Of a stretch of 64,000 bases of DNA, positions 1 to 64,000 are shown one piece after another. A program made the translations under genes and the position numbers. This stretch comes from a virus: the IMG/VR virus record IMGVR_UViG_3300045988_162176, positions 1 to 64,000 of that record; one strand, given 5' to 3'. The notes under the pieces are model-generated. The model ran no database searches and was not told the DNA's origin. It was given only the letters and a program-made list of their open reading frames with translations. Position 1 is the first letter of the stretch, and each line of letters begins with the position of its first letter.

Positions 1-55
1 AAAAGATATATTGAGAAAAGATATATTGAGAAAAGATATATTGAGAAAAGATATA
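1..55. repeat. Tandem 15-nt direct repeat AAAAGATATATTGAG (about 3.6 copies, cut by window edge)
   Basis: Read at 1-15, 16-30, 31-45, partial 46-55. Last unit forms inverted repeat AAAGATATA (47-55) / TATATCTTT (71-79). Confidence 0.85.
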
Positions 56-106
56 AAGATGATTTATCCGTATATCTTTGTTATTAATTTGAAAGGAAGT
101 GTTTTT

Positions 107-1333
107 ATGGGTAGAAAAATAATTGATTTAACAGGTAAAGATTTTGGAATGTTTCATGTAGTAAAATAGAGTGAGAAAAAATATATTACAGAAAGTGGAC
201 ATTCATTAGTTTAGTGGGATTGTGTTGATAAAGATGGAAATGAATATAAATTATTAGCGCAATATTTAAAAACTTATCCTACTGAATATAATCCATATAA
301 TAAAAAAGGCCATACAGACTCTAAATATAAAAACAATAAAAATACTTGGGTTCAACAAAAAGTTAACTCTTGGAAAGAAAATAATACTACTGAAATTAAA
401 CATCAAAGAAAAAAATATGATTTAATTGGACAAGTCTTTGGAGATTGGGAAGTTCTTGAAGAAGGCGAACCATATCAAAATAAATCTACTATATATACTA
501 GACGTACATGGAGATGTGTTTGCCATCATATTTTAAACGATGGAACAGAATGTGGTAAAGTTGAAGATGTTATTGAAGCTAATCTTGTAAGAGGTAAAAG
601 TTCTTGTTGCAAAGATTGTGTAAAACTTATTTCTTCAAAGAAAATAGAAATTGGGTAGATTTATGGAAAATTAAAAGTTGTTGAGAAAATAACAAAGGAC
701 CCTACTTTAACTGATAGATAGTGTGAATGGTTGTGTGAATGCCAATGTATATTAAAGACAAAAGTAATTCGTTTTCGGAATGTGCTCTTAAGTTCTTCTT
801 CAGTTGGAAAAGCTTGTCATCAATTCGGATGTAATACTAATGAAGTCATAACTGATGAAAATGGAAATATTTTAAAAAGAAAATGTAAAATATGTGGAGA
901 AATGAAAGATGCTTCTTGTTTTAGAAGTTCGCTACAAGCAAGAAAAAATCCAGTATGCTTAGAATGCAATCCAAGGCATCCAGTTATACCAATGACTCCT
1001 GAAGAAAAAAGTCCTCATGAAAGATATAAATTTTATCAAAATCGAGCAAAAAGTAAGGATTGTGAATTGGAATTTACAGAAGAAGAATTTGATAAATTTA
1101 CTAAATAGCCATGTTTCTATTGTGGGGGATATTCTATTAGCAAACAATATCAAGATTAGTTTTGTGGAATAGATAGAGTTGATTCTAACAAAGGGTATTC
1201 AAAAGATAATTGTGTACCGTGCTGTTTTAGTTGTAATGTTATGAAAATGGGACTTGATGTTTATGATTTCTTGGACAAAGTAGAATTGATAAACAAGAAT
1301 CTGGATAATATTAAATAGGCTTTGGAAAAATAA
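107..1333 (+). CDS. HNH homing-type endonuclease, 408 aa if 7 in-frame TAG codons are sense
   Basis: ATG 107 follows GAAAGGAAG. One frame is free of TAA/TGA until TAA 1331-1333, with TAGs at 167, 212, 656, 719, 1106, 1157 and 1316. C-terminal CFYCGG...GIDRVDSNKGYSKDNCVPCCFSCNVMK HNH motif; three Cys-rich FG..L.V N-terminal modules. Confidence 0.8.
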
Positions 1334-1451
1334 TTTTTTTGATTTTTTTGAAAAATTTTTTTCATTTTTTAATTCTCGTACCCCGAAATCTACGACAAAT
1401 AATATAAAAACTAAATAAAAGTAAGTAAAAAAATGTAATTTCAAGTAATAA

Positions 1452-1480
1452 AGCTGGTTAGTGAGTAATCATTAGCCAGC
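1452..1480 (+). terminator. Stem-loop AGCTGGTTA/TAGCCAGCT downstream of the HNH gene
   Basis: 9-bp stem with one T.G pair, followed by TTTAAAT. Weak T-run. Confidence 0.4.
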
Positions 1481-1515
1481 TTTAAATATATTTATCTTTA
1501 AAGGAGTCAAAGAAA

Positions 1516-1707
1516 ATGAAAGAGTACAAGTTCATCGCCCTCATCCTCGCTATCGTTCTCATCGGTCTTGGTTGCGTAAGATTTTGCAACCATCTGGTTG
1601 AGAAAACAATTGACCAAACAATCAAGAATGCAGTTCTTGTTGAATCAAACGAGAGCGGCTACACATTAAATTTCTATGGTCAGGAATATGATTATTCCTT
1701 TGATTAA
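1516..1707 (+). CDS. hypothetical small membrane protein (63 aa)
   Basis: SD AAAGGAG about 8 nt upstream of ATG; hydrophobic FIALILAIVLIGLG segment. Confidence 0.7.
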   Translation: MKEYKFIALILAIVLIGLGCVRFCNHLVEKTIDQTIKNAVLVESNESGYTLNFYGQEYDYSFD

Positions 1708-1722
1708 AAACTTTTCAATCCG

Positions 1723-1795
1723 ACTCGTTCTGGAAGGTTAACGAGTATAAACAAATAGCCTTTCTCCAATAGTCCTGCAATAATAAATTTTAAAG
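1723..1795 (+). repeat. about 70-nt intergenic repeat, copy 1 (hairpin ACTCGTT/AACGAGT plus conserved tail)
   Basis: About 80 percent identical by eye to 2052-2121; same position upstream of the next small gene. Confidence 0.75.
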
Positions 1796-1833
1796 ACCTC
1801 CTTGGGAAAGAGGCAAAGAAAGGAACAAAAGAA

Positions 1834-2043
1834 ATGAAAAAATCCATTAATAAAATGAGCAACGAGGAGCTGCGTGTTGCAGCTACCGAAAAGAAAACCC
1901 TTAAAAATGGCAAAAAGGTCTTCACAGACAGGGCAATTGCAGCCCAAACACGACTGTATGAGGAGAGCTTCTCCTCGTGCAGCAGAGGGTATTATATACC
2001 CACGAGGGAGGATGACACCATTCTCCTAAGTGATGAGTGGTAA
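1834..2043 (+). CDS. hypothetical protein (69 aa)
   Basis: ORF track; SD AAAGGAA upstream of ATG. Confidence 0.65.
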   Translation: MKKSINKMSNEELRVAATEKKTLKNGKKVFTDRAIAAQTRLYEESFSSCSRGYYIPTREDDTILLSDEW

Positions 2044-2051
2044 CATCCCTT

Positions 2052-2121
2052 ACTCGTTCTGAAGGATTAGCGAGTATAAATAATTAGTCCTATCCCATTA
2101 GTCATTGCAATAATATTTTAA
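2052..2121 (+). repeat. about 70-nt intergenic repeat, copy 2
   Basis: Matches 1723-1795; stem kept as ACTCGT/GCGAGT with a T.G pair. Confidence 0.75.
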
Positions 2122-2172
2122 GTCCAGCGTAATGAACTGGCGCTCCCAAATAAGGGAGAGAAGGAGTAAAAA

Positions 2173-2424
2173 ATGAAGTACAACAATATCGAAATGATGC
2201 GTAACATCGCTATTGCACTCGGCATGAAGGAAACTGTTTTCAATGGGCGTACCACATTTAGTGGCACAGTAAGAGGAAAGCACGCTTTCCTCTCTGGCGA
2301 TGCTAAATATGGCTGGTTCTTAAGATTAAGTCCCAGTCGTGATTGCGACTTCATTGATGAAGTCGAATCGTACTGCATTAGCGATGAAGTTGCAGCTTTG
2401 AGAATAGTTGAAGAGTTTGGTTAA
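2173..2424 (+). CDS. hypothetical protein (83 aa)
   Basis: SD GAAGGAG 7 nt upstream of ATG. Confidence 0.7.
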   Translation: MKYNNIEMMRNIAIALGMKETVFNGRTTFSGTVRGKHAFLSGDAKYGWFLRLSPSRDCDFIDEVESYCISDEVAALRIVEEFG

Positions 2425-2457
2425 TCCAGACTCTTCTAATTCCTAAGCATTGTTAAA

Positions 2458-2494
2458 GCCCAGTATCCAATCCCTCAAAGAAAAGATACTGGGC
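2458..2494. terminator. Bidirectional stem-loop GCCCAGTATC/GATACTGGGC (cassette 1)
   Basis: 10-bp perfect stem after stop of 2173-2424; short T stretches on both strands. Confidence 0.6.
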
Positions 2495-2590
2495 TTCATA
2501 GAGTGCTTAGTGTGAATAAGCTCTCTGCTTAATTATGGATTACCTACATAGTCTATAATTAAGTACTAAATTACGAAAGGAGTGATGCAA

Positions 2591-2665
2591 ATGTAGAAAA
2601 TCACTTTTATTAATTACGCTCTCAACGTAGTTGGTATGATTATTTTGAAGAACCACAACTTCTAA
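2591..2665 (+). CDS. mini-ORF 1, MQKITFINYALNVVGMIILKNHNF (24 aa, TAG at codon 2)
   Basis: SD AAAGGAG 8 nt before ATG 2591, which is followed directly by TAG. Peptide aligns with 5 paralogous mini-ORFs. Confidence 0.55.
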
Positions 2666-2713
2666 GATAATTTTGTGCATTAAGAGGGTTGTGTAGGCAA
2701 TCCTCTCATTATC

Positions 2714-2742
2714 ATAATAACACATTTTAAAATGAATGTCAA
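2714..2742 (-). promoter_or_regulatory. antisense promoter TTGACA-N17-TATTAT with TGT extension (cassette 1)
   Basis: Minus-strand -35 at 2737-2742, -10 at 2714-2719, 17-nt spacer. Confidence 0.65.
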
Positions 2743-2776
2743 GGAAAAGACAATAAAACCAGAAAGGAAATGAAGC

Positions 2777-3178
2777 ATGTTTATTAATATGACCTCTATT
2801 ACCATCATTACCATTGCTATTCTGATTATCATAGTTGTCTATGGTCTTGTTATCAATCTTGAAGCAATGGCTCAAAATAAGAGCATGAATCCCAGAGCGA
2901 TGTTCTTGTTAATGGTCATCATTGCTATTTGCTGTGCAATTTTTGCAGACCATATTGATTACAGTAAAAGCATCCCCGCAGAAGTCTACACCAACGAAGA
3001 CGTAACTGGAGCATATAATGCTGGTTACGATGCTGGTATTGAAGAAGCCTATGCAACTACTGAGGATTGGTTCTCTAACCTTCAGTCTGTTACTATTGGT
3101 GAAGATGGAACAACAATCCATCTCATTGATGGTAATGGAGAAGAATGGGTTCTGGTAAGTGACGATTATCAGAACTAA
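2777..3178 (+). CDS. hypothetical membrane protein (133 aa)
   Basis: SD GAAAGGAAA upstream; two hydrophobic segments at the N-terminus. Confidence 0.7.
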   Translation: MFINMTSITIITIAILIIIVVYGLVINLEAMAQNKSMNPRAMFLLMVIIAICCAIFADHIDYSKSIPAEVYTNEDVTGAYNAGYDAGIEEAYATTEDWFSNLQSVTIGEDGTTIHLIDGNGEEWVLVSDDYQN

Positions 3179-3222
3179 CCTCTCGACCCGAGCAAGTCGT
3201 TAAACTACTCAAACATAACAGA

Positions 3223-3248
3223 AGGAGAGATATCCCCCTATCTCTCCT
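3223..3248. terminator. Bidirectional stem-loop AGGAGAGATA/TATCTCTCCT (cassette 2)
   Basis: 10-bp stem, C-rich loop, T-rich flank on the minus strand. Confidence 0.6.
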
Positions 3249-3308
3249 CTGTAGTGAATAAGGACCTACATCCTTGTTTGCTTCTATCAATCTTCAGGAG
3301 GTAAAATA

Positions 3309-3383
3309 ATGAAGAAAATCATTAGCATTAATTATTTCTTTAATGTTGTTGTAAGCATTATTCTCAAGAACTACAACTTCTAA
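3309..3383 (+). CDS. mini-ORF 2, MKKIISINYFFNVVVSIILKNYNF (24 aa, no TAG)
   Basis: SD AGGAGG 7 nt upstream of ATG; close paralog of mini-ORF 1. Confidence 0.55.
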   Translation: MKKIISINYFFNVVVSIILKNYNF

Positions 3384-3446
3384 TAAGATGTAATTAAATA
3401 TCCTTAATAAGAGAGGTGTGTAGGCACTTCTCTTATTCTAACAACA

Positions 3447-3475
3447 AGTATAACATATAAAGTTGTGCTTGTCAA
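3447..3475 (-). promoter_or_regulatory. antisense promoter TTGACA-N17-TATACT with TGT (cassette 2)
   Basis: -35 at 3470-3475, -10 at 3447-3452 on the minus strand. Confidence 0.65.
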
Positions 3476-3502
3476 GAGTTTTATAGAAAGGAATCAAAGA
3501 AG

Positions 3503-3838
3503 ATGAAATTAGCCGTCCATGATATCTGCAATATGTTAGTTGGTATTGCAAAACCTTGGGAAGATACTGAAGTATTCGCTCAATGGGAAGATAGAGGAGC
3601 ATTTGCTCAGTCCCACTTTGGGACAGATTATTGGCTTCACGTATATGTCTCTCCTGATAGAGTGCTAAATGAAAATAATACAACTTATTATATAAAGTTG
3701 TATTGTGAATACACACTATCTAAACTTAATATGATAGCTAGGCCAATCAAAGAAAAAAGAATACAAATTACTTCCAAGGAAGATTTTGAATCTTTCATTA
3801 TGGAAGTACGCTCTCTCAAGGAACGTTACATCGGTTAA
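3503..3838 (+). CDS. hypothetical protein (111 aa)
   Basis: SD GAAAGGAA upstream of ATG; ORF track. Confidence 0.7.
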   Translation: MKLAVHDICNMLVGIAKPWEDTEVFAQWEDRGAFAQSHFGTDYWLHVYVSPDRVLNENNTTYYIKLYCEYTLSKLNMIARPIKEKRIQITSKEDFESFIMEVRSLKERYIG

Positions 3839-3865
3839 GCATTATTAGCAGAAAGGAAAAAAGAA

Positions 3866-4207
3866 ATGAATTACTCTATTAAATTTGTTAAAAGCATCTG
3901 CATTTATGATGCTGAGTCTATTATCAACAACTTTGAACAAGGGTGGAAGCCTGAAGGGGTGGATGGCCATCACCCCGATATTGTAAGTGTTTCTAGGGTA
4001 GTAGAAATTAAATTTGAAAACGATGCTAGACTTATGAAGTACATCAAGTCTCTTCAGGAACTCAGCAAATATGATATTATTGTCATGGCTGCTGAAAGTC
4101 ACCTCGCCACTTATACATTGAACAAAAATGAGCACCGCTGGGAGAAAAAAATTGGAGGAACTGTTCGATGGTTTAATTTCGTCTCTAATCAGTGGATTAA
4201 CATCTAA
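3866..4207 (+). CDS. hypothetical protein (113 aa)
   Basis: SD GAAAGGAAA upstream of ATG. Confidence 0.7.
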   Translation: MNYSIKFVKSICIYDAESIINNFEQGWKPEGVDGHHPDIVSVSRVVEIKFENDARLMKYIKSLQELSKYDIIVMAAESHLATYTLNKNEHRWEKKIGGTVRWFNFVSNQWINI

Positions 4208-4220
4208 ACGAGGTGTATAT

Positions 4221-4412
4221 ATGAAACTCAAATATTATTACGATGGTCCTGTAACCAGATGGAACGATTACTATTGTCATTATTCTGGTTACACAATGGC
4301 AAGTAGTGACAAACAAGCCCTGAATAACTTGCGTGGCAGAATCAAGCGTGAAAAAGGCTTAACCATGGATTCTAAGCTTGAGCTTAGTTCCAAATATCTC
4401 AAGCAAGTGTAA
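4221..4412 (+). CDS. hypothetical protein (63 aa)
   Basis: Start moved to ATG 4221, preceded by GAGGTG; the longer track ORF overlaps the upstream gene. Confidence 0.6.
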   Translation: MKLKYYYDGPVTRWNDYYCHYSGYTMASSDKQALNNLRGRIKREKGLTMDSKLELSSKYLKQV

Positions 4413-4452
4413 GTATCAACAATCAATTTGACAAAAGAAAGGAATTAAAGTC

Positions 4453-4785
4453 ATGTTTAAGAAAATGAAAAACACTGTTCGCTCTCTCACCAACAATCCC
4501 ACCCATTTAGAAGCGCCTTCTCTTAGTAGAGCGCTTGATACCTATGGAAATCTGAACTGTCTGATTGATTCAGGATTAAAAGAAATCATCCGATGGTGTG
4601 CAAAAAGCACCAGAGATGATACAAAAGAGAGATACATCTTTTCTAAAAAGAACCTTGATTATGTGCTCGACCATTTGAGCACTGAGGTTCTTGTGTCTAT
4701 TCAGGTCACACCTCTTGAAGATGATAATGGTAGTATCTGGTGTTGGATGCTTACCAAAATCAAAAAGAAACGTATTTACTTCTAA
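4453..4785 (+). CDS. hypothetical protein (110 aa), paralog of 27152-27478
   Basis: SD GAAAGGAA; shares RY.FS.K..Y...L and DNGSIWC motifs with 27152-27478. Confidence 0.7.
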   Translation: MFKKMKNTVRSLTNNPTHLEAPSLSRALDTYGNLNCLIDSGLKEIIRWCAKSTRDDTKERYIFSKKNLDYVLDHLSTEVLVSIQVTPLEDDNGSIWCWMLTKIKKKRIYF

Positions 4786-4847
4786 CCAATTGGCTTAAGG
4801 CGAATCAAAAACCAAATTTAATACAGACTTGAAAGGAGTCAAAGATT

Positions 4848-5162
4848 ATGAAAAAACTTACTATTATGGGTCGCAACTATACTCTCGACCAGACTTTAAC
4901 TGAAATGAACAGTTCTTGGGGGGTTAAACATCTTTGTAAGGTGAAAAACAACTTCTGCCTTAATATCTGCAAAGGCAAGAGTTGCAAATCCTGCGAAAAA
5001 TGTGAGATTGAACAATGTTTCAATCTTTCGCTTAAGGAAATCAAAGAGGGAAAGCGTAAGGAGTTAATTCCTTGTGCTGAGTACTTCAATGATAGAACCA
5101 ATTATGGTGCTCGTCGTTATTACAATGGCAAGGGCATCAAAACCGAAGTTTGGCACATTTAA
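4848..5162 (+). CDS. hypothetical Cys-rich protein (104 aa)
   Basis: SD GAAAGGAG; CKGKSCKSCEKCEIEQC cluster. Confidence 0.7.
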   Translation: MKKLTIMGRNYTLDQTLTEMNSSWGVKHLCKVKNNFCLNICKGKSCKSCEKCEIEQCFNLSLKEIKEGKRKELIPCAEYFNDRTNYGARRYYNGKGIKTEVWHI

Positions 5163-5176
5163 GGAGGTGAAACAAT

Positions 5177-5371
5177 ATGTTCAAGATTATTAATCGTTAT
5201 GGTAAAAGCGTAACTGTATTGATTAAGATGAAAGAGGTTACTGTATTTGAAGATGACCTCTTCCCCAGCATCATTTGCTCATTCCTTAATAAGAAGGAAA
5301 TTAAACCTGATTGGTTTGTGAACAGTTTTGATTTTAACTGGTGCAAGCCTTACATGGTTGCGCGTGTTTAA
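5177..5371 (+). CDS. hypothetical protein (64 aa)
   Basis: SD TAAGGAGGTG 7 nt upstream of ATG. Confidence 0.7.
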   Translation: MFKIINRYGKSVTVLIKMKEVTVFEDDLFPSIICSFLNKKEIKPDWFVNSFDFNWCKPYMVARV

Positions 5372-5380
5372 ACATTGTTA

Positions 5381-5408
5381 GAGGGATGGAAAATAACTTC
5401 CATCCCTC
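5381..5408. terminator. Stem-loop GAGGGATGGAA/TTCCATCCCTC (cassette 3)
   Basis: 11-bp stem directly after stop of 5177-5371. Confidence 0.55.
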
Positions 5409-5499
5409 AATAGAGTGTTTAAGCCCAACTTATTCACTCACACATTAATTTAGCCTACAATAAATTAATGTCTTATTAAATTAGAAAGGAGTTTTTGCT

Positions 5500-5571
5500 A
5501 TGTAGAAAATCTTAGCAGTTGACTATTATTGGTCCACAGTAGTAGTCTTCATCATTTACAATCGTAATTAA
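5500..5571 (+). CDS. mini-ORF 3, MQKILAVDYYWSTVVVFIIYNRN (23 aa, TAG at codon 2)
   Basis: SD AAAGGAG 8 nt upstream of ATG-TAG. Stop codon lies inside the 10-bp hairpin CGTAATTAAT/ATTAATTACG. Confidence 0.55.
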
Positions 5572-5622
5572 TCCATATTAATTACGTCACAAGTAGAGAG
5601 TGTAGGCTTTCTACTTGTGTTT

Positions 5623-5651
5623 ATCTTAGCACACTTGATAATATCTGTCAA
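5623..5651 (-). promoter_or_regulatory. antisense promoter TTGACA-N17-TAAGAT with TGC (cassette 3)
   Basis: -35 at 5646-5651, -10 at 5623-5628 on the minus strand. Confidence 0.6.
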
Positions 5652-5697
5652 GTGGTAATTACAAACATTTTTTGATTTATGAAAGGAATTTAGAATT

Positions 5698-6630
5698 ATG
5701 AAGAAGATTAACCTCACCAACATCAAGAACGAAAAGTCCGTTAGCGAAGTCCTGTTCGATGCACTTAAGCCCAAAGCAATCACCAATGAACAGTCTAAAA
5801 CTGTTTATGCTCTCAAACTCTCTGTTGAGAGAGAAATTGAGAAAAGAGAAGACGGTCGTAACTGGGCTATTAGAGACCTTCCTCTTTATCTTCCTGAAGT
5901 GGATTTACACTATCAGCGTGAACCCAAAAATTATGAAGTAGCCAAAATTACCAACAACTTTAATATCAATAAAGTTGAAGTTAAAGCAGCCTCTATTCGT
6001 AAAGTTGGTAACACTTGGCATCTGTTTCTTATGGATGGTGCTCATACTTTGAGCGTTCTGCTTTATATGCAAAGCAAGGGTTTCCCCATTTATGCTATCA
6101 CTTGTAAGGTTTTTATCAATCTTACTCTGGAAGAAGAAGCAGATTTGTTTGCTACTCAGAATGAGGGCAAGACTAACCTTCGTGGCTACGAAAGATATAA
6201 AGCTGAACTTTGTGCAAAGAAGCCCACAGCAGTGATTATCAATCAGGTTACAAAGGAATTTGGTCTGACTGTTAAGACCAATCGCAATAGCACCATCAAT
6301 CGTTATAACAACATCAATGCAGTTGAAGAGCTGTATCGTATTGTTAAGCGTGATGGTGAAAACGCTCTTCGTTTTGTGTTCGCTGTTCTTCAGGGAACTG
6401 GTTGGAAGGATGATATGGTTTATACTCAGCGTATGTTGGCAGGAATTTCTGCTTGTTATAAGCACTGTGAAGATACCAAAGCGTTCAACTATTTTCTGTT
6501 GAATCTTAAGCAGTATAAGAGCTGTGATGAGTTTGTTCGTGTTGCTCAGGACAAGATTGAAGAACACGAAGGTCATCCTGCTGAAAAGATTCGTGATTAT
6601 CTTCTTACTTACATGGTTTACAAGAAGTAA
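5698..6630 (+). CDS. ParB/Srx-fold N-terminal domain protein (310 aa)
   Basis: SD GAAAGGAA. YQRE...NFN..KV......V....W.L.DGAHTL pattern resembles the ParB-like nuclease N-domain (DGQHR-type); assigned by eye. Confidence 0.6.
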   Translation: MKKINLTNIKNEKSVSEVLFDALKPKAITNEQSKTVYALKLSVEREIEKREDGRNWAIRDLPLYLPEVDLHYQREPKNYEVAKITNNFNINKVEVKAASIRKVGNTWHLFLMDGAHTLSVLLYMQSKGFPIYAITCKVFINLTLEEEADLFATQNEGKTNLRGYERYKAELCAKKPTAVIINQVTKEFGLTVKTNRNSTINRYNNINAVEELYRIVKRDGENALRFVFAVLQGTGWKDDMVYTQRMLAGISACYKHCEDTKAFNYFLLNLKQYKSCDEFVRVAQDKIEEHEGHPAEKIRDYLLTYMVYKK

Positions 6631-6638
6631 AAGAAAAG

Positions 6639-6668
6639 AGACTGATAGCTGTCCAAACTACCAGTCTC
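6639..6668. terminator. Bidirectional stem-loop GAGACTG/CAGTCTC (cassette 4)
   Basis: 7-bp stem; TTTTCTTTT on the minus strand after the stem. Confidence 0.55.
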
Positions 6669-6732
6669 ATTTAAGACACCAGACTCCTGTAAAGTCTGTT
6701 TACATAATTACTCACAGAAAGGAGTATATCAC

Positions 6733-6804: not shown

Positions 6805-6873
6805 TGAAATAATCGGGGACTAAAACCTACACTCGTCAAGTAAAAGTTACAGGCTACCTTGCTTGATGAGTGT

Positions 6874-6902: not shown

Positions 6903-6959
6903 GTACTTTGTAAAAATTTCTTTTAAATACTTGACACCATTAAGAAAGGAAAGTATAAT

Positions 6960-7660: not shown

Positions 7661-7662
7661 CC

Positions 7663-56948: not shown

Positions 56949-56949
56949 A

Positions 56950-57300
56950 TTAATTAAAATCCTTAATTACTTTATAATAAAATTCATCTTTTAATTTATC
57001 AGAAATGATGCCCATCTTGTGAAAATGCTCGTTTAGTTTAATGCAAGCTAATTTAATAAATTCGTTATAATTAAATATCCATGTCCAACCTAAAACAAGG
57101 TTTATGATTGGAAGAGCACTTAAAATAAGAATTTGAATAATTGGAATTGCAGAACCAGTACTGGATAATTTAATTTTAACATTTCTTGCATCAAAAAAAT
57201 TATTCACATATTTTGTAATTTCTTTGACAAGATAAAAGAAAACCAAAACATCCAGAATAAAAACAAATCGCCAAACATTAATTAGAATTTTTAGAATCAT
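56950..57300 (-). CDS. hypothetical membrane protein (116 aa)
   Basis: ORF track; two or three hydrophobic segments; overlaps the end of 57278-57505. Confidence 0.55.
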   Translation of the reverse strand: MILKILINVWRFVFILDVLVFFYLVKEITKYVNNFFDARNVKIKLSSTGSAIPIIQILILSALPIINLVLGWTWIFNYNEFIKLACIKLNEHFHKMGIISDKLKDEFYYKVIKDFN

Positions 57301-57505
57301 CTGTCTTTGTATCTTTCTCCTTTACTTCTTCAACTTCTTTCGGGACTTCTTTGAATTTTTTACAAAGATAAGATAAATGCCCCATGGAATTATATGTAAA
57401 TCCACTTTCATGATGTCTTACACAATCCTTCCATGGGCATTTCTTTTCATCACAGCCAGTAAAAGGAAGTAAAGATATCTATCTGTCACCTTTTGGAATA
57501 TACAT
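57278..57505 (-). CDS. hypothetical protein (75 aa, TAG at codon 9)
   Basis: ATG 57505 after AGGAG. Hand translation MYIPKGDR(TAG)ISLLPFTGCDEKKCPW...; TAA at 57278-57280. Confidence 0.55.
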
Positions 57506-57528
57506 TTATTTTTCTCCTATATGTATTA

Positions 57529-58065
57529 TTATCCCTTAATTTGAATATAAGGGATAGACTCGGGACCAATATCAAAGTCCCATCCGTTTTCCACAATTTT
57601 TTCAAGAAAAGTCTTGTTATTTGCCAGATTCCAAACAATATTACTACAGCAATCTTTATGAATGGTATAATAAGGATGCTTGATATTTTTTTCACGACCA
57701 ACTTCAAAAAGACGCCCCATAATGACATTAAAGAAATAACTTGCATCATTATCTTTAAAAGTCTGATTCCAAACTTCTGCATCTTCCTTTGCTTTTGCGC
57801 TGGTAATATCAACCCAAGAACCATCTTCATTCTTTTGAAAGGAGAGTTCATACCCTCTACACTCGCAAAGCTCTTTAAATCGCTTATCATTGGTTAGAAT
57901 TTTCCATAAAGTCGGAGTGAGCTGGAAACTTTCAAAACGTGCAACACTATATCCCAAACTGGAATTGTGGTCAAGACGTTCTTCGATATAACTAAGAAGC
58001 TTGGTGATATTATTATTCTTATTATTGCTCTTGTATTCTTCAAGATATTCCTGTTTAGTAAACAT
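57529..58065 (-). CDS. hypothetical protein (178 aa)
   Basis: GGGAG upstream of ATG. Confidence 0.7.
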   Translation of the reverse strand: MFTKQEYLEEYKSNNKNNNITKLLSYIEERLDHNSSLGYSVARFESFQLTPTLWKILTNDKRFKELCECRGYELSFQKNEDGSWVDITSAKAKEDAEVWNQTFKDNDASYFFNVIMGRLFEVGREKNIKHPYYTIHKDCCSNIVWNLANNKTFLEKIVENGWDFDIGPESIPYIQIKG

Positions 58066-58104
58066 AATTTAACAACTCCCATTGCTTTTTTAGTTGATAT
58101 TTAT

Positions 58105-58133
58105 ATAATACTACAAGCAAAGAGAGTTGTCAA
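58105..58133 (-). promoter_or_regulatory. promoter TTGACA-N17-TATTAT, embedded in a hairpin
   Basis: -35 at 58128-58133, -10 at 58105-58110. The spacer ACAACTCTC pairs with GGGAGTTGT at the SD. Confidence 0.65.
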
Positions 58134-58140
58134 GTGGTTA

Positions 58141-58530
58141 TTAAGTTTTTTTACCAATTTTATAAGGGTATAATTTTAATTCTTCTGATAAATCTTTATA
58201 CTGGATAGCTTTTTCTTCAATAAGATAAGAATCATTTTTCTTTTTTGAAGATTTCATATCTTTAAGATTTTTGCTACCACAATAAGGACAATAAATAAAT
58301 TCTTTTTCGAGAGCATATCTTGTAATGAATTCTGGATTAGATAAAGTAGAAGTTGCGTGCATATATTCTCTGCAATTTATACAATAAGAATAAAAAGCTC
58401 CATCATGGATAAATTTAATTACAAGCCAGTCTCCATTTCGAAATAAGACTCTGTAACGAGGGTCATTACCATTGTACTGATAATCACTGTACTTCGCTTG
58501 TCTTATCTTCTTTCTTTGTTTCTTCGACAT
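58141..58530 (-). CDS. hypothetical zinc-ribbon protein (129 aa)
   Basis: ORF track; CINC...CPYCG. Confidence 0.65.
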   Translation of the reverse strand: MSKKQRKKIRQAKYSDYQYNGNDPRYRVLFRNGDWLVIKFIHDGAFYSYCINCREYMHATSTLSNPEFITRYALEKEFIYCPYCGSKNLKDMKSSKKKNDSYLIEEKAIQYKDLSEELKLYPYKIGKKT

Positions 58531-58535
58531 TTTCT

Positions 58536-58832
58536 TTATTTTAACTTTCCTTGAAATAAATATGTTACTGTAGTATTTGTTTTGTCGGCAATAATCATAA
58601 AATCACGGCAAGTAAGAAAATATTTTTTATGAATAATTTTTCTTACATTCTTTTCTGAAATATTAAGAAATTCAGCCCACTGCTTGTATGAATAAGGACT
58701 TGCTTTCATTACTTTGCTTACTCGCTTTAATTTATCCATATAAGGTTTATTAGGATGAATATAATAGAATTTAATATAATACCAAAAACCAAGAAGTTTA
58801 TTTTTAAAATTTTTCATGGCTTCTTTTTCCAT
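58536..58832 (-). CDS. helix-turn-helix (XRE-like) protein (98 aa)
   Basis: KQWAEFLNISEKNVRKIIHKK resembles an HTH. No clear SD. Confidence 0.5.
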   Translation of the reverse strand: MEKEAMKNFKNKLLGFWYYIKFYYIHPNKPYMDKLKRVSKVMKASPYSYKQWAEFLNISEKNVRKIIHKKYFLTCRDFMIIADKTNTTVTYLFQGKLK

Positions 58833-58847
58833 TATTCGAAAGTATTT

Positions 58848-59033
58848 TTAAGAATTGCTTTTTTGAAGAAATTCTTCCACATTCTTTAAACAATTACTAC
58901 ATAAATCATAAGATTGATAATCATCCCAAATTTCGCCGCCACGTTCAAAATGTCTTTTTATTTTTAAAATATTAATATTGAAAGGATTTGAAATAGGCAT
59001 TCCGCATCTATCGCAAAAACATTTAGTTGCCAT
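58848..59033 (-). CDS. hypothetical zinc-ribbon protein (61 aa)
   Basis: Start moved to ATG 59033 after AAAGGAG; CDRCG...CSNC. Confidence 0.65.
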   Translation of the reverse strand: MATKCFCDRCGMPISNPFNINILKIKRHFERGGEIWDDYQSYDLCSNCLKNVEEFLQKSNS

Positions 59034-59325
59034 TTTGTTTTTCTCCTTTGTAGTATTTCTTCTCAATCATCTGGTCGATACAGCCTTTATAACAACCTCG
59101 ATGAACTGTTCTTATATGACCTTTATGCCAAATCCATTTCCACCAAGGTAAATATCCTTTGTAATGAAAATCATGCTCCCCTTCTTCATCAAGCCACATC
59201 CAATGTGGGCAAGGAACTTTATTCAAAAAAACAGGAAGATACATTATTTTAATTTTAGGATTTTTTATTTTAGCTTTAATAGCTTCAAATAAACAATTAG
59301 AATAAAAGTCTTTTGAATTTTTCAT
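59023..59325 (-). CDS. hypothetical protein (100 aa)
   Basis: ATGA overlap with the upstream stop. Confidence 0.65.
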   Translation of the reverse strand: MKNSKDFYSNCLFEAIKAKIKNPKIKIMYLPVFLNKVPCPHWMWLDEEGEHDFHYKGYLPWWKWIWHKGHIRTVHRGCYKGCIDQMIEKKYYKGEKQNGN

Positions 59326-59816
59326 TTACTAATCCTATCTGCAATCGTACTTGCTACAAAACTATCTGGTTTAACAGTTGGTTCGTAACCAGCACCTTTT
59401 AACCACCCAACAATTTCTGGAATTACTTGACCACTTGGTCCAGCATATCCAGCATCTACATGAATCCCAATGCTAGTATACTTTTCATAGTCAAAATTTT
59501 CTTGAATAGACAAAGTTGTTAATTCATCAATTAACTGGTCAGCATATACAATGCTTAATTCAGTTTCCTTGTGAATTTTAACTTTTAAATTTAAAATAAT
59601 GGGGAGCTTTTGAATTTCATAGAAGAACTTACCACCTTTGCCATCGGTATAGACAGCAATGACAATGACGGCTTTTGTTTCATCTTTGTGATTTTGACTA
59701 TCAGTACCAATGACAATATGATTATGTTCTGCTACATCTGCATGGTCTCTAATATAGTCAAAAATAATTTCGGCTATTTGGCGCATATTTACTCGTCCAT
59801 ATGTCGGACTAATCAT
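59322..59816 (-). CDS. YkuK/DUF458-like RNase H-fold protein (164 aa)
   Basis: SD AAAGGAA; IVIGTDSQ, IHVDAGYAGPSG and KPDSFVASTIADR motifs resemble the YkuK family (by eye). Confidence 0.6.
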   Translation of the reverse strand: MISPTYGRVNMRQIAEIIFDYIRDHADVAEHNHIVIGTDSQNHKDETKAVIVIAVYTDGKGGKFFYEIQKLPIILNLKVKIHKETELSIVYADQLIDELTTLSIQENFDYEKYTSIGIHVDAGYAGPSGQVIPEIVGWLKGAGYEPTVKPDSFVASTIADRISK

Positions 59817-59842
59817 ATTATCATTCCTTTACTTTGTTTTAA

Positions 59843-60676
59843 TTATAAACTGTTAAGTTTATCTATGATTTGATTAAACTTATCAATTGTTTTAGAAGAG
59901 AATTCGTATTTTTTGTTCGTGTTTCTATCGTAAATTGTACTAATTACACTACCAGAATCATACTTATAGTAAAAATCGTCCTTCGTAAAATGAGGAAGTT
60001 TTGCCTTAGCTTCTTTAACAGGCATTTCTACAACAACACGAGTTGTAGTAAAAATCTCATAATCTTCTGGATTATAAAACCAATTCAGTTCTTTCTTGAG
60101 AGCTTTAATAGAAGTGAAATACTTAGCTCCATCTTTATCTGTAACAAGTGGCGTATCTCCAAAAGTACTCATTCCTTTATAATAGCACTCTTCGGGATTA
60201 GAACCTTTAACAAACTCAGAATTAATTTTAGCAATATAAACTTGCTCTTCTGTTTTTGTTTCTGTCTCTTTTTTTAGAGGCTTTCGAATTGTAATTTCTT
60301 CAATTTCATAATCTTCTTCATTGAAAAACCAATCAGCCGTGCATTTTGCTTCAAAGAAAGTTTTAAAAGGATAAGCTTCTTCTTTCTTACCAAAAACAAC
60401 TTCTTCATGATGTAAACCAGACGCATTACAATAATAATTTTTTCCTTCTGTGGGAACTTCATGTTCTTTTGCATTAGATTTAATACAAATAACATCAGGT
60501 TTAACACGAATAATAAAACGTTTGTTTGAATCATTACCATTTTTAAGATTTTCATTTAGCAAAGTGCCACATACAGGACAATAATTAGCATGGACATAAA
60601 AATCCCCATGGTCAATAAGATTCTTTTTACTTGTAGCGTTAATAGTGAATCTATAATTCTCACACCACTTACACAT
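59843..60676 (-). CDS. hypothetical protein (277 aa), zinc-ribbon plus two internal repeats
   Basis: SD GAAAGGAG; CKWC...CPVCG; two WF.NEEDYEI-type repeat modules. Confidence 0.7.
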   Translation of the reverse strand: MCKWCENYRFTINATSKKNLIDHGDFYVHANYCPVCGTLLNENLKNGNDSNKRFIIRVKPDVICIKSNAKEHEVPTEGKNYYCNASGLHHEEVVFGKKEEAYPFKTFFEAKCTADWFFNEEDYEIEEITIRKPLKKETETKTEEQVYIAKINSEFVKGSNPEECYYKGMSTFGDTPLVTDKDGAKYFTSIKALKKELNWFYNPEDYEIFTTTRVVVEMPVKEAKAKLPHFTKDDFYYKYDSGSVISTIYDRNTNKKYEFSSKTIDKFNQIIDKLNSL

Positions 60677-60713
60677 ATAGAAAAGACTCCTTTCAGTCTA
60701 ATTTACTATCAAT

Positions 60714-60742
60714 AGTATAAACCAAAAAGAGTCTGTTGTCAA
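60714..60742 (-). promoter_or_regulatory. promoter TTGACA-N17-TATACT, embedded in a hairpin
   Basis: -35 at 60737-60742, -10 at 60714-60719. The spacer AGACTCTTT pairs with AAAGGAGTCT at the SD. Confidence 0.65.
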
Positions 60743-60747
60743 GAGTT

Positions 60748-61017
60748 TTATTTAATTTTCTTTTGTTTTCTTATTTCACTTTGAATTTTAAACCAATAAA
60801 TTGCTGCCATAACAAGAGCAATAGGCCAACAAAAAATCAAAGTTAAATAATGTAATAAGGTTACTTCTTTATCATTTTTATTAGCAGGACAATTATAAAC
60901 ATTATATGTTACTGCAAGCCCACATAAAAGATAAAGAGCAAAACCTATTAGAGATACATCATTCAATCTCATTGGTAAGTTGCCACTCAAAATGTATTTA
61001 AATATATTTAAACACAT
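60748..61017 (-). CDS. hypothetical small membrane protein (89 aa or shorter)
   Basis: Two hydrophobic segments. No SD before ATG 61017 or the internal ATG. Lies directly downstream of the tnpB 3' region. Confidence 0.4.
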   Translation of the reverse strand: MCLNIFKYILSGNLPMRLNDVSLIGFALYLLCGLAVTYNVYNCPANKNDKEVTLLHYLTLIFCWPIALVMAAIYWFKIQSEIRKQKKIK

Positions 61018-61019
61018 CG

Positions 61020-61200
61020 AGAAATTGAAATCCTTACGGATAATTCTTACTGCTTCATAATATATGCTTTCACGATTATAAATAATCCGCTATTCGCAGG
61101 TCCTTGTATATTCCACAGTCGTAAATTCCCGAAATAGCCTTCGGTACATACTTATGATTGCTTAATTATACAATTTCATAAGTTAAAGCATCTCTCAAAT
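61020..61200 (-). ncRNA. candidate TnpB guide RNA (omega/reRNA) scaffold
   Basis: Overlaps the tnpB 3' end and the 150-nt ORF-free tail. Minus-sense hairpins CCGAA..TTCGG, GATTAT..ATAATC and ATCC-GTAA-GGAT. Confidence 0.4.
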
Positions 61201-62317
61201 TAAGACTTGCATTGAAATCTCTATCTGCAATATAACCACATGAACAGTAGTATACTCTGTCTGAAAGTTTTAAGTCTTTATTAATATTACCACAACAATG
61301 ACATAATTTAGAAGAGGGATAAAATCTATCTACAATTCTTAATTCAATATCATTTTCGGCACATTTAACTTTTAATTTTGTTCTAAATTCATAAAACTTT
61401 TGTGCGGCAATAGCTTTTGAAAGATACTTATTCTTCATCATACCTGATATATCTAAATTTTCAATAGTTATATAAGATGGCTTGGTTTTTACTATCTCAG
61501 CTATTATTTTATTGATATAATCAGTTCGAATATTAGTTATTTTATGATAAAGTTTTTGTACTTTAAGTTTTTGTTTTTGTATATTTTTTTGAGTGCTGCC
61601 TCCTTTCTTAAAATTTTCATATTTACGAGAAAGACATCGTTGTTCTCTTCGTAATTGTTTTTCTATTTTTTTTATTTCCCTTGATTTGTTGATATTTTTA
61701 TATATTTTACCATTTGAAATAACGGCAAAATCTTTCAAACCCAAATCAATTCCTATACCTTCATTAAAATTGTGCGCAATTTGAATATTTGGCATCTCTA
61801 CTAAAACAGATACAAAATATTTATTTGCTTTAATAGATACTGTGCCGCTCTTAATTTTCAAACCGCTTTTAGATACTGGTATATAACCTTTTTCTTTTAA
61901 ACGAACCCATCCCAAACTTGGAATTTTAATTCTATGTCTTTCACAAAGACAATCGGTTAAATTATTTTTAACAAAATACATTTTTACATCAGATTTTCCT
62001 TTTTTCTTAAATTTAGGATAACCTGATTGATGTTTAAAAAATTTTGTAAAAGCAGCATATCCATCTTCAATAGATTTTTTTACTGCTTTTGAATATACTT
62101 CTTTAATCCATATTTTGTCAGGATTGTTTGGAATATATTCATTATTAAGCCATAAACTAAAACTTTTTCCTGTTACAAATTTTTTATTTCGGTCATATAA
62201 TTCTTTATTATAAGACAAATAAAAATTGTAAATATATCTACAAGTCCCAATTGTTTTATTAATTTGAATCTTTTGTTCTTTTGTTGGATTTATTTCCGTT
62301 TTAAAACTTTTTAACAT
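61166..62317 (-). CDS. tnpB: TnpB RNA-guided nuclease (IS605 OrfB family, 383 aa)
   Basis: GIDLGLKDF, ITIENL and ADRDFNASLNL RuvC-like D/E/D motifs with a CHCCG...CSCG zinc finger. No in-frame TAG. Confidence 0.85.
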   Translation of the reverse strand: MLKSFKTEINPTKEQKIQINKTIGTCRYIYNFYLSYNKELYDRNKKFVTGKSFSLWLNNEYIPNNPDKIWIKEVYSKAVKKSIEDGYAAFTKFFKHQSGYPKFKKKGKSDVKMYFVKNNLTDCLCERHRIKIPSLGWVRLKEKGYIPVSKSGLKIKSGTVSIKANKYFVSVLVEMPNIQIAHNFNEGIGIDLGLKDFAVISNGKIYKNINKSREIKKIEKQLRREQRCLSRKYENFKKGGSTQKNIQKQKLKVQKLYHKITNIRTDYINKIIAEIVKTKPSYITIENLDISGMMKNKYLSKAIAAQKFYEFRTKLKVKCAENDIELRIVDRFYPSSKLCHCCGNINKDLKLSDRVYYCSCGYIADRDFNASLNLRDALTYEIV

Positions 62318-62332
62318 TTTTACCTTTTAATT

Positions 62333-62460
62333 AAAATAAAAAGAACTGTGGTACAAAATTTGTTTTTGGAGGAAACAAACATGAACAAAATACGAAAAAG
62401 GAGGTGGCCTTATTAGCAAATCCAGTCTATTATAAGGAGGTAAATTGTACCACAGTTCTT
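62333..62460 (-). ncRNA. about 125-nt promoter-to-terminator RNA upstream of tnpB
   Basis: The inferred start site falls at the first base of a 16-bp stem (62445-62460 / 62341-62356), which is followed by TTTTTATTTT. The interior carries three CCUCC motifs. Confidence 0.5.
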
Positions 62461-62466
62461 ATTATT

Positions 62467-62495
62467 ATATTAACATACTCTTTCGAGTTTGTCAA
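62467..62495 (-). promoter_or_regulatory. promoter TTGACA-N17-TAATAT with TGT
   Basis: -35 at 62490-62495, -10 at 62467-62472 on the minus strand. Confidence 0.65.
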
Positions 62496-62506
62496 CAACT
62501 TATTAG

Positions 62507-63514
62507 TTATTTTTTAAGAAGCATCTGATGAGAATAAAGAATCTGCATCTTTTCAGCTACAGACAAACTTCTGTTATAAGCATCATCATTGTCAGCCAAA
62601 CGCATTGCAAATTGATAGTCAAGATGGTTGAGGATTTCTTCTGTTAACACATGACCATAATTCATGTTTAAACATTGAGAAACTTTTTTATATTCGATAA
62701 TATATACATCAAACATACACTGAGCATAAGTCATATCAAAAGGTTGACCATTCTCAACAAGACTAAGCATCTTCTTATAATCAAAGAAAGTGATGTTAAG
62801 ATTTTTTGTCAGTTTTTCAAAAGTGTTTAAACTAACACCTTTAGTTTTACAAGTAGATTTTAAATAATCACAAGCATTATTATTAAGAACACTACTGTTC
62901 CAATACACATCATGGTCTCGATTAGCGTAAACTTCTTCTGGACTAGCAAAACCAGTTAATACAATTGCTTTGCCAACAATTTTACCGTTGTCAAGTTTGT
63001 TTTTGCCATAGCAATTTGCCAAATCCTTTTTATTAACTAAAAGTTTTGCTTTAGCAACAACGGTTAATTTAATATTAACAGAATAAGTATAGCCATAATT
63101 TGAAATATATGAAATATAATTATACCATTTTAGAGCATCTTTTACAGTTAAACAAGCATGGAAACCATTGCCACAGTAATCAATTTTACTAAATTCCTCT
63201 TCTTCTGGTAGTGCATAAACTTTATTAAGTTCATAGACAAAGTTACGACTGGGACCCATATATTTTACTTTTTCATCGGAAAGATAATAGGTCTTATAAA
63301 GAGCTTTGTAACAATCAATCCATTCCCAATCTTCTCCAATAGGAAAAGGAACATCTTCCATTTTTTCATATTCCCAAGTATTCCTACTGATAACTGTATG
63401 ATTAGGAAGATTATTCGTGTAAGATTCGCTGGAAGATTCTTCAAAATCTACCCCAGATGCAGGGTAAGCTTCATATTCGACAGGATTGTTTTTTTTAGAC
63501 TTATTAAAAAACAT
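62507..63514 (-). CDS. hypothetical protein (335 aa)
   Basis: AAAAGGGGA upstream of ATG. Confidence 0.7.
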   Translation of the reverse strand: MFFNKSKKNNPVEYEAYPASGVDFEESSSESYTNNLPNHTVISRNTWEYEKMEDVPFPIGEDWEWIDCYKALYKTYYLSDEKVKYMGPSRNFVYELNKVYALPEEEEFSKIDYCGNGFHACLTVKDALKWYNYISYISNYGYTYSVNIKLTVVAKAKLLVNKKDLANCYGKNKLDNGKIVGKAIVLTGFASPEEVYANRDHDVYWNSSVLNNNACDYLKSTCKTKGVSLNTFEKLTKNLNITFFDYKKMLSLVENGQPFDMTYAQCMFDVYIIEYKKVSQCLNMNYGHVLTEEILNHLDYQFAMRLADNDDAYNRSLSVAEKMQILYSHQMLLKK

Positions 63515-63530
63515 ATTTTATTCCCCTTTT

Positions 63531-64000
63531 TTAAAACCTATAAAATTTACGAGGTTTAATATCTCGCACCATATTTTTAATTATCCCTTGAGATTTTTGA
63601 ATTGCTTCTTCCATTTTCTTATCAAATTCGTCACGAGGTACTTCCTTGAAATGGTCAGTATCATTTGGATAATTTAACAGGAAGAATAAATCAATATCCT
63701 CATTATAATACGGAGCAATATCAATTTCTGAATCTTCATAACTACCATAAGGTATTTCATATTCAAAATTGTTAATTTCAATACAACCCCATTGAGAAGA
63801 ATAAGAAACTTCACATCTACCTTCTAACAACTTGGAAGGCTGAACAATCATAATATAATGTCCTCTATGAATATAACAATTTCCAATCAACTTTGGAGCG
63901 AGTTCTTTCATAATATATTCATCATAAGACTTTCTTGTAAGCTTGTTTAATTCTTTAACAGTTTCAGAAAGCTCTTTCTTTTTAGTTTCCAGTGACGTTT
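63531..64000 (-). CDS. hypothetical protein, 5' partial (frame open to the window edge)
   Basis: No SD before ATG 63911, and the frame stays open upstream (…TSLETKKKELSETVKELNKLTRKSYDEYIMKEL…). Confidence 0.6.
   Translation of the reverse strand, partial: TSLETKKKELSETVKELNKLTRKSYDEYIMKELAPKLIGNCYIHRGHYIMIVQPSKLLEGRCEVSYSSQWGCIEINNFEYEIPYGSYEDSEIDIAPYYNEDIDLFFLLNYPNDTDHFKEVPRDEFDKKMEEAIQKSQGIIKNMVRDIKPRKFYRF

Follow-up and report, generated by a model that had tools for sequence, protein, structure and literature searches.

Probable reading of TAG as glutamine in a large human gut phage with its own suppressor tRNA

Positions 1 to 64,000 of the IMG/VR virus record IMGVR_UViG_3300045988_162176, the whole 64,000-nucleotide stretch analyzed here and called the window below, contain seven open reading frames (ORFs) in which TAG codons interrupt what otherwise look like ordinary genes. 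If TAG is a stop codon in this phage, these frames are broken or accidental; if it is a sense codon, then which amino acid is inserted, and what inserts it, are the questions that this locus raises. A sequence-only reading of the window had proposed the second of these, with glutamine as the best fit for TAG and phage suppressor tRNAs as the agents of reassignment. We find that at least six genes of the window, and most late genes of the phage, are translated through in-frame TAG, and that the terminators of this phage are TAA or TGA. The proposed reassignment is supported by a tRNA gene with anticodon CUA, by codon exchanges between relatives, by selection around the TAG sites, and by the early and late densities of TAG, and it is very probably the suppressor tRNA encoded by the phage itself that decodes TAG, as Gln.

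TAG as a sense codon and the residue it specifies

Genes were called with our own codon-usage caller, under code 11 and again with TAG as a sense codon. Code 11 gave 110 genes in the window (94 ending in TAA, 15 in TGA, and 1 in TAG) at a coding density of 0.81, and with TAG as sense there were 114 (98 TAA, 16 TGA, and 0 TAG) at a density of 0.85, so that the comparison of codes recommended in the sequence-only reading yields both more genes and a higher density when TAG is read through. The absence of TAG ends among 114 genes has a probability of ~4e-7 when set against an off-frame share of 12%. The earlier claim that genes end only in TAA or TGA stands as a count, although its stronger form, that no gene requires TAG, fails at one codon (38101-38103), to which we return below. 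We dropped the sum of long ORFs as a metric, since any stop codon made sense inflates this sum and the codes are not distinguished by it.

The seven TAG-containing ORFs lie at the coordinates and on the strands originally reported, with 17 in-frame TAGs between them (7, 5, 1, 1, 1, 1, and 1) and no TAA or TGA inside, and each has its own start, an ATG behind an AAGGA/GGAG-type Shine-Dalgarno box. TAA and TGA together make up 8.3% of codons in the off-frames of window genes, and the chance of a frame free of both is 4e-16 for 408 codons and 4e-18 for 463 codons, the lengths of the 2 ORFs richest in TAG. In relatives at 86-92% nucleotide identity the TAG sites are kept while synonymous changes accumulate on both sides, with purifying selection acting in one and the same frame before and after TAG. 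There is no excess of TAG near gene 3' ends anywhere in the clade.

Under the standard code, the interrupted ORFs would be pseudogenes or chance frames, and the missing TAG ends would reflect the bias of AT-rich DNA toward TAA. This explanation can point to the 107 of 114 window genes that are free of TAG and need no recoding, to the NCBI third-party annotation (TPA) and IMG records, which are annotated in code 11 with truncated products of 535 and 297 amino acids (aa) and fragments of 108 and 68 aa, and to the one TAG that coincides with a stop position. It would, however, leave 408- and 463-codon frames broken by TAG alone (P below 1e-15) and would break the terminase, RNA polymerase, and endolysin genes all at once, and it runs against both the conservation of TAG sites amid synonymous changes and the CUA tRNA encoded in the same contig. 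The standard code is already contradicted by the data of the present analysis, and we regard it as extremely improbable here.

The richest of the seven ORFs is the gene of an HNH/endonuclease VII-like (PacI-like) homing-type endonuclease (107-1333, plus strand; 408 codons), with TAGs at 167-169, 212-214, 656-658, 719-721, 1106-1108, 1157-1159, and 1316-1318. Its residues 257-404 match the PHROG endonuclease VII/HNH families, and the PacI structure (3LDY) aligns with this core (E 4e-4) with a Q opposite TAG codon 351; the conserved PacI-like core comes after 6 of the 7 TAGs, as had been said of the HNH motif. TAG accounts for 7 of the 19 Gln-like codons of this gene (binomial P 4e-6). The gene was found in just 2 IMG/VR relatives and is therefore probably mobile. 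The second, a 463-codon gene of unknown function (35495-36886, minus strand) that matches nothing in Pfam or PHROG, has TAG at codons 4, 6, 13, 46, and 103 (36875-36877, 36869-36871, 36848-36850, 36749-36751, and 36578-36580), four of which are kept in relatives at 92% nucleotide identity.

Four shorter or less interrupted genes, all on the minus strand, have a single TAG close to their start. In the 101-codon gene at 52575-52880, codon 18 (52827-52829) is a TAG conserved in 2 relatives (L001 and L003) amid flanking changes that are mostly synonymous. The same 2 relatives conserve TAG codon 5 (54243-54245) of the 343-codon gene at 53226-54257, which encodes a protein with a Pfam SPOR domain and has no ATG between this TAG and codon 47. 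A 75-codon gene (57278-57505) has TAG at codon 9 (57479-57481). The fourth (43071-43334), with TAG at codon 10 (43305-43307), is the first copy of a small paralog family and keeps its TAG in L108 and L109; the N-terminal MEWxxF upstream of this TAG is common to the paralogs, and translation therefore begins before it. Seven further copies follow at 43352-45200 (minus strand), and the residues opposite the TAG are R, K, R, Q (CAA), R, L, and Q. The alignment with Gln in copies 5 (CAA) and 8 that had been offered for Gln is thus real, but the other five copies have R, K, R, R, and L, and the array therefore says little about the residue. In the eighth copy (44916-45200, minus strand), codon 3 is a TGA (45189-45191; ME-TGA-F against MEWF) where the other seven have TGG (Trp). 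We rejected TGA as a second recoded codon, as paralogs end in ...WTRLN-TGA where others end in TAA, a true stop, and because TGA is a true stop in these copies, the TGA at 45189-45191 is probably a nonsense mutation.

Which amino acid is inserted at TAG was addressed at the level of DNA codons only, using the genes called at 60 clade loci. Database proteins were rejected for this purpose as circular, since Logan and ENA products are already translated with Q at TAG, and a first comparison of all ORFs, in which off-frame and antisense ORFs produced false W, L, and Y signals, was replaced by one restricted to called genes. Among 260 orthologous TAG columns, 139 are variable, and Gln codons occur in 84 of these (CAA in 60, CAG in 39) and are the sole alternative in 61. 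The other partners of TAG are Lys (26 columns), Glu (10), Asn (10), Trp (5), Tyr (3), and Leu (2). Since CAA lies two mutations from TAG, exchange between them is that of synonymous codons and not of mutational neighbors. Within the window genes, all 5 TAG interchanges involve Gln codons (8 of 11 in the whole contig): the 463-codon gene has CAG at codon 13 in L111, relatives have TAG in place of its CAA codons 199, 216, and 339, and L003 has TAG in place of CAA at codon 68 of 52575-52880. At position 661 of the phage RNA polymerase, where TAG also occurs, 37 of 40 homologs have Q. Gln, the best fit proposed from the window by itself, remains so across the clade.

The suppressor tRNA and its split genes

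The contig that matches the window is k119_55060 of ENA ERZ27296301 (214,176 bp), in reverse orientation, with 100% identity over 52507-64000 and 99.99% over 22-13178. The region beyond the window was reached by an outward walk through related IMG/VR contigs with two-part queries; the loci retrieved for the clade bear L numbers, and L104 belongs to k119_55060 itself. The sequence-only reading had placed the tRNA genes outside the window and had made recoding depend on a suppressor tRNA somewhere in the genome. No tRNA genes were found in the window, and an array of 10-15 of them lies ~20 kb past position 64000, its last member bearing the anticodon CUA, so that the predicted suppressor is present in the same contig. 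In k119_55060 this gene occupies L104 1077-1147 (contig ~112,129-112,199), ~17.7 kb past position 64000. It is called as a CUA tRNA by ARAGORN and scores 36.8 bits against the Rfam tRNA model (gathering score 29). Upstream, tRNA-Arg(UCU) ends 0-30 nucleotides (nt) away, and downstream a fully conserved gene for a 151-aa protein begins after ~110-130 nt; a CUA tRNA occurs at the same site in 26 of 26 relatives, intact in 16 and split in 10.

The tRNA at this site is not one and the same gene from strain to strain. At least 4 suppressor tRNA sequence types with 52-72% mutual identity were found there (L072/L078, L075, L083, L104/L076, and L071), one of them with a long, class-II-like variable arm, and the site behaves, to judge by these sequences, like a replaceable cassette. 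The "TGAGGA.." types of other strains have an unpaired U1-U72 and G73, and an unpaired 1-72 pair with G73 is tRNA-Gln-like by Escherichia coli rules.

The 10 split genes are interrupted inside the anticodon by an insert of ~200-220 nt, and standard ARAGORN misses them (L073 9578-9871, L085 8586-8878, L099 9583-9876, L101/L102 9582-9875, L093 8586-8879, and L071 8581-8885, with others in L084, L096, and L098). In the commonest form, U35 and A36 are separated by an insert of 219 nt whose last base is G. Joining the 5' exon, which finishes with ...CUCU, to the 3' exon, AAAAUCCU..., gives back precisely the CUCUAAA of intron-less alleles, the junction being defined by the intron-less L081 against the split L073, L099, L101, L085, and L093. 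Focused searches with Rfam RF00028 gave full-length matches of 34.9 bits (L073) and 35.6 bits (L085), with E ~2-4e-7 against a gathering score of 50. The L071-type split tRNA, in which the insertion follows U33, gave no match to RF00028, and in a search of 61 kb with this model the known sub-threshold matches were also lost. These are leads and not established results: the insert would be a group-I-like intron, and its splicing is a prediction. No paper describing intron-split phage suppressor tRNAs was found in the literature searched. Suppressor tRNAs have been reported in just 35-40% of recoded phages (bioRxiv 10.1101/2021.08.26.457843), and zeta crAss-like phages have been noted to lack them although their recoding is obvious (PMC12386605); interrupted genes offer one concrete and possible reason for suppressor tRNAs going undetected.

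Other features of this region are recorded as observations. Just downstream of the suppressor tRNA, all strains have a gene of the Acb2/Tad1-hairpin family (L104 2302-2667), by its Pfam name an anti-CBASS/anti-Thoeris sponge family. Several other tRNAs of the array fit the Rfam tRNA model only with insertions of 50-100 nt in the anticodon loop, too short for group I introns (L104 736-868; L073 3682-3803 and 9268-9400; L085 456-593). Inside the array there are also sub-threshold matches to YrlA, a Y RNA-like family (L071 2713-2811, L085 2964-3062, and L099 4786-4884; 37-41 bits against a gathering score of 69), and 12 kb from these matches lies a gene for a 572-aa DUF2828/DUF7788 protein (L104 13078-14796), with which they may form a Ro/Y-RNA-like pair.

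Several results weigh against the decoding of TAG as Gln by this tRNA. The suppressor tRNA of the window's own contig has G1-C72, U73, and no encoded CCA, has the lowest Rfam score in the array, and by its sequence does not look like a tRNA-Gln; similarity to the other 126 tRNAs assigns no isotype, with identities of 70% or less. With at least 4 unrelated-looking types at one site, that all of them are charged with one and the same amino acid is an assumption. A search of ~120 kb of DNA from the clade with an approximate release-factor core motif gave no match, and no aminoacyl-tRNA synthetase gene was seen in the retrieved DNA, which covers all but ~97 kb of the genome. On the side of the residue, 55 of the 139 variable columns contain no Gln codon, TAG aligns with Lys or Arg in most paralogs and in a family of leader mini-ORFs described below, and Gln, though almost certainly the residue at TAG, is identified through codon substitutions.

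If TAG were sense but not uniformly Gln, the residue could be Lys, pyrrolysine, Ser, or another, or could depend in each strain on the type of suppressor tRNA. The diversity of these tRNAs, including the class-II-like variable arm, and the failure to assign an isotype by similarity would fit such a situation, as would Lys being the second commonest partner of TAG (26 of 139 columns), codon 2 of the mini-ORFs being TAG in four copies and Lys in two, and the label "Pyl" that ARAGORN gives the CUA tRNA from its anticodon alone. Gln codons, however, including the CAA two mutations away, occur in 84 of 139 columns and are the sole partner in 61, and replacements of Q by K or by E are ordinary for Gln. 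The same TAG positions are moreover kept across different suppressor tRNA types, for example in the HNH endonuclease of the window and of L106, which speaks against a residue that changes with the tRNA. Pyrrolysine in particular was considered and rejected, the main partner of TAG being Gln and not Lys and the "Pyl" label being based on the anticodon; no pyl genes were seen in the retrieved DNA, in which no systematic search for them was made. A residue other than Gln, or more than one, is thus an improbable alternative, and Gln inserted by the CUA tRNA is the reading we carry forward.

TAG in early and late genes, at a former stop, and in leader mini-ORFs

TAG is unevenly distributed over the genome. 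The window has 0.94 in-frame TAGs per 1000 codons, with TAG in 7 of 114 genes, and the flanking early regions have 1.3-1.6, against 4.4-6.6 per 1000 codons and up to 18 of 27 genes in the block that encodes RNA polymerase, terminase, structural, and lysis proteins. Coding density in this late block is 0.55-0.72 in code 11 and 0.81-0.89 with TAG as sense. The endolysin gene has TAG at codons 10 and 56, and a holin-like gene has it at codon 91. A 953-aa RNA polymerase gene of the PF05183 type adjoins the window. This YonO-like gene has a TAG at codon 52, in some strains also at 661 and 664, and both it and the neighboring NT5C-like nucleotidase gene carry TAGs (L007 1-2578; L010/L012 9845-12706); with TAG inside its gene, the polymerase would be expected to need the suppressor tRNA for its own synthesis. 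The gene for the terminase large subunit is disrupted in two strains, one having an intein-like insert there and the other an HNH endonuclease gene (L010 19032-20786; L012 19002-21569).

In published recoded phages, early genes can be read in the host code, and late and lysis genes are opened after the suppressor tRNA acts (bioRxiv 10.1101/2021.08.26.457843; PMC7886860). If the present phage follows this pattern, it would enter a host with the standard code in which release factor 1 (RF1) stops at TAG, and only TAG-free genes (107 of 114 here) would be made in full. As the suppressor tRNA accumulated, TAG would come to be read and the TAG-containing genes would be opened: inside the window, those for the HNH endonuclease, the 463-aa protein, the SPOR protein, and several small proteins, and outside it, those for the YonO-like RNA polymerase, terminase, structural proteins, holin, and endolysin. 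A reservation attaches to this sequence of events, the timing of the code switch being taken over from the published model.

Early genes also place their TAGs differently from Gln codons. With orthologous columns collapsed, codons 1 to 20 of early-region genes hold 21% of the TAG columns but 10% of the Gln-only ones (Fisher 4e-4), and the median relative position is 0.33 for TAG and 0.57 for Gln-only columns (Mann-Whitney U, 3e-11), statistics which rest on our simple gene caller and on related, non-independent genomes. The 5' bias holds after removal of sites with a possible downstream start, and it is absent from the late block, where TAG is placed like Gln codons. The single TAGs of the window genes 53226-54257, 57278-57505, 43071-43334, and 52575-52880 are at codons 5, 9, 10, and 18, respectively, and are kept in relatives. 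The 5' TAGs of early genes, together with the TAGs at codon 2 of the mini-ORFs, might serve as a cheap on/off gate and not as one more Gln codon.

The remaining TAG-containing ORF of the window (37945-39708, minus strand) is a different case. Its TAG, codon 536 (38101-38103), is followed by a tail of 51 codons (37948-38100) that ends at TAA 37945-37947, and directly after this TAA comes an intrinsic-terminator-like hairpin with a 12-bp stem and a T-run (37909-37935, minus strand). An IMG/VR search with the 587-aa protein gave no match, and five orthologs (L108-L112) were reached via cluster members of the neighboring 463-aa protein. In L108 and L112, the protein ends in ...EEERRRQFEER-TAA, and this TAA occupies exactly the nucleotides at which the window has TAG. 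The same GAAGAAAGATAA recurs in L109-L111, where a 2-nt indel lies just upstream, and the same hairpin lies ~45 nt past the TAA stop in all five. This TAG thus sits, to judge from the orthologs, on an ancestral stop, a further point against reading every TAG of the window as an ordinary sense codon; homologs do end at this TAG, as they do not at the other sixteen. Of the seven genes said to be broken under the standard code and repaired by reading TAG, six are repaired, but this one, its orthologs stopping with TAA at the same position, was therefore never broken and is either extended or has a leaky TAG stop. The stop-free extension to a TAA before a stem-loop is as had been described, but it is an insert unique to this strain and lies past the ancestral stop.

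Whether the tail is selected at all is a separate matter. TAG 38101-38103 could be a leaky terminator, obeyed by host RF1 early in infection, with the tail a by-product of insertion and not a selected sequence. The orthologs that end at this very nucleotide position with TAA and have no tail fit this well, as does the tail itself, a strain-specific 153-nt insert with no homolog in any retrieved locus. By its coding score the tail ranks at the 5th percentile among real genes, and its chance of being open is 0.01-0.06. On the other side, this score exceeds the 95th percentile for off-frame windows, the open stretch reaches exactly to the shared terminator hairpin, and a 587-aa form of the protein is also recorded for another large contig (P0074). 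With the evidence so divided, we give a leaky stop about an even chance at this one codon, and translation through TAG in the other six genes is unaffected.

Six leader mini-ORFs had been noted on the plus strand of the window, five of them containing TAG, and this is what we find. They are M-TAG-KITFINY... (2591-2665; TAG at codon 2), MKKIISINY... (3309-3383; the only window copy without TAG), M-TAG-KILAVDY... (5500-5571; codon 2), MKKYLYVDMVA-TAG-... (6733-6804; codon 12), M-TAG-RIFYVDY... (11706-11777; codons 2 and 15), and M-TAG-KIK-TAG-INY... (20466-20546; codons 2 and 6). The family shares a plan of a Shine-Dalgarno AAAGGAG, an ATG, and 23-26 hydrophobic codons. Each member lies 110-250 nt upstream of a plus-strand gene, and 13-24 nt past each is a hairpin of 10-22 bp with a covarying stem and a conserved TGTAGGC-like loop, followed by a TTGTCAAGT motif and then the next gene. 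An ATG-TAG start is found in 4 of the 6 window copies and in 10 of the 11 distinct sequences recovered from the window and relatives by a pattern search that did not pick up the copy without TAG at 3309. One mini-ORF spells Leu as TTG and another as CTC, a sign that selection acts on the peptide. These mini-ORFs may be amber-gated leaders.

A more ambitious and rather doubtful possibility is that the phage has built sensors of its own code switch out of the ATG-TAG mini-ORFs, the early TAGs at codons 4-18, and an intron-timed suppressor tRNA. Under host RF1, the ATG-TAG mini-ORFs would be start-stop units; with the suppressor tRNA present, a hydrophobic peptide of 23 aa would be made and the ribosome would run up to the hairpin, and the single TAGs at codons 4-18 of otherwise TAG-free early genes would act alike. 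The switch itself would be timed, in the ~40% of strains that have it, by a self-splicing group I intron in the anticodon of the suppressor tRNA. If this were true, the intron-timed switch would also explain the undetected suppressor tRNAs of many recoded phages.

The remaining features of the window place it within the phage. It has a G+C content of 33%, with plus-strand genes over 1-28,000 and minus-strand genes over 28,600-64,000, and is best explained as an early or accessory part of the genome. Its plus-strand block includes plasmid- or conjugation-type genes, for a DUF6551 (ParB-like) protein, two PcfJ-like proteins, and a DUF932 protein (5698-6630, 9114-11447, 12029-13039, and 16657-18270), all of them TAG-free. 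On the minus strand, a TnpB/IS605 OrfB gene (61166-62317; Pfam HTH_OrfB_IS605, OrfB_IS605, and Cas12f1-like TNB) is missing at the same place in the Hadza relatives L001 and L003, and further TnpB copies occur elsewhere in relatives (L108 1930-3228 and L109 12291-13394). Megablast with 25 kb of the window found no DNA match among GenBank phages, nor did a capsid-like late protein match any of them, and the NCBI records of the phage are third-party entries only ("Bacteriophage sp." and "Siphoviridae sp. ctLqe90"). A 151-aa protein of its genome, on the other hand, has entries in 2287 blocks of the public assembly collection, where the contigs that carry it reach 228 kb; this is a very common, ~215-kb phage of the human gut. 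The closest cultured-phage relatives of its 953-aa RNA polymerase belong to Bacillus, Enterocloster, and Clostridium phages, and a Firmicutes host is therefore likely.

Comparison with known systems

Group I introns occur in the anticodon loops of bacterial tRNAs, as in cyanobacterial tRNA-Leu UAA and Azoarcus tRNA-Ile. The split suppressor genes resemble these in the ~219-nt insert in the anticodon, the 5' exon ending in U, the insert ending in G, the precise restoration of the tRNA, and the full-length match to RF00028; they differ in that the host gene is a phage suppressor tRNA and in scores (34.9 and 35.6 bits) that are below the threshold of 50. The classical amber suppressor of E. coli, supE, is a tRNA-Gln with the anticodon CUA. 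The phage suppressors share with it a CUA anticodon that keeps U35 and, in the "TGAGGA.." types of relatives, the unpaired 1-72 and G73, whereas the type of the window's contig has G1-C72 and U73, and all are dedicated phage genes and not mutant alleles of cellular ones. As for the 953-aa neighbor of the window, which we take to be a single-subunit RNA polymerase of the Bacillus SPbeta YonO type, it matches PF05183 and has its best cultured-phage matches in Bacillus, Enterocloster, and Clostridium phages, but its gene carries an in-frame TAG.

For annotation, the consequences are direct. The code-11 records of NCBI TPA and IMG split or truncate the polymerase, terminase, lysin, and endonuclease genes, whereas a public gene-calling pipeline already reads k119_55060 through TAG, and code 15 should be used for this phage. 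The recoded phages gain a well-sampled lineage, and the intron-split suppressor tRNAs, the 5'-biased early TAGs, and the ATG-TAG mini-ORFs are three leads, not established, beyond the published picture.

The nearest known system is that of the gut phages with genetic code 15 (TAG to Gln), namely uncultivated crAss-like phages, Lak phages, and the "gemstone" clades (bioRxiv 10.1101/2021.08.26.457843; PMC7886860), for two crAss-like members of which Gln at TAG has been proven by metaproteomics (PMC9523058). The present phage agrees with them in having in-frame TAGs aligned with Gln, a phage-encoded CUA tRNA, and a host presumed to use the standard code, and in combining TAG-poor early genes with TAG-rich structural, packaging, and lysis genes; the recoded endonuclease at 107-1333 even has a parallel in a recoded homing endonuclease described among them (bioRxiv 10.1101/2021.08.26.457843). 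It differs in having several unrelated types of suppressor tRNA at one site, often split by a putative intron, and a 5' bias of its early TAGs. No release factor or synthetase was found in the retrieved part of its genome, and release factor 2 and glutaminyl-tRNA synthetase, as accessory genes of the code change, are carried by a minority of published recoded phages. Judged by descriptions alone, the "Sapphire" and "Jade" clades are the nearest, with genomes of ~200 kb, TAG recoding, few recoded genes, and a link to Firmicutes. The phage belongs to the known class of code-15 phages, and its use of TAG as a sense codon is real and not new in kind.

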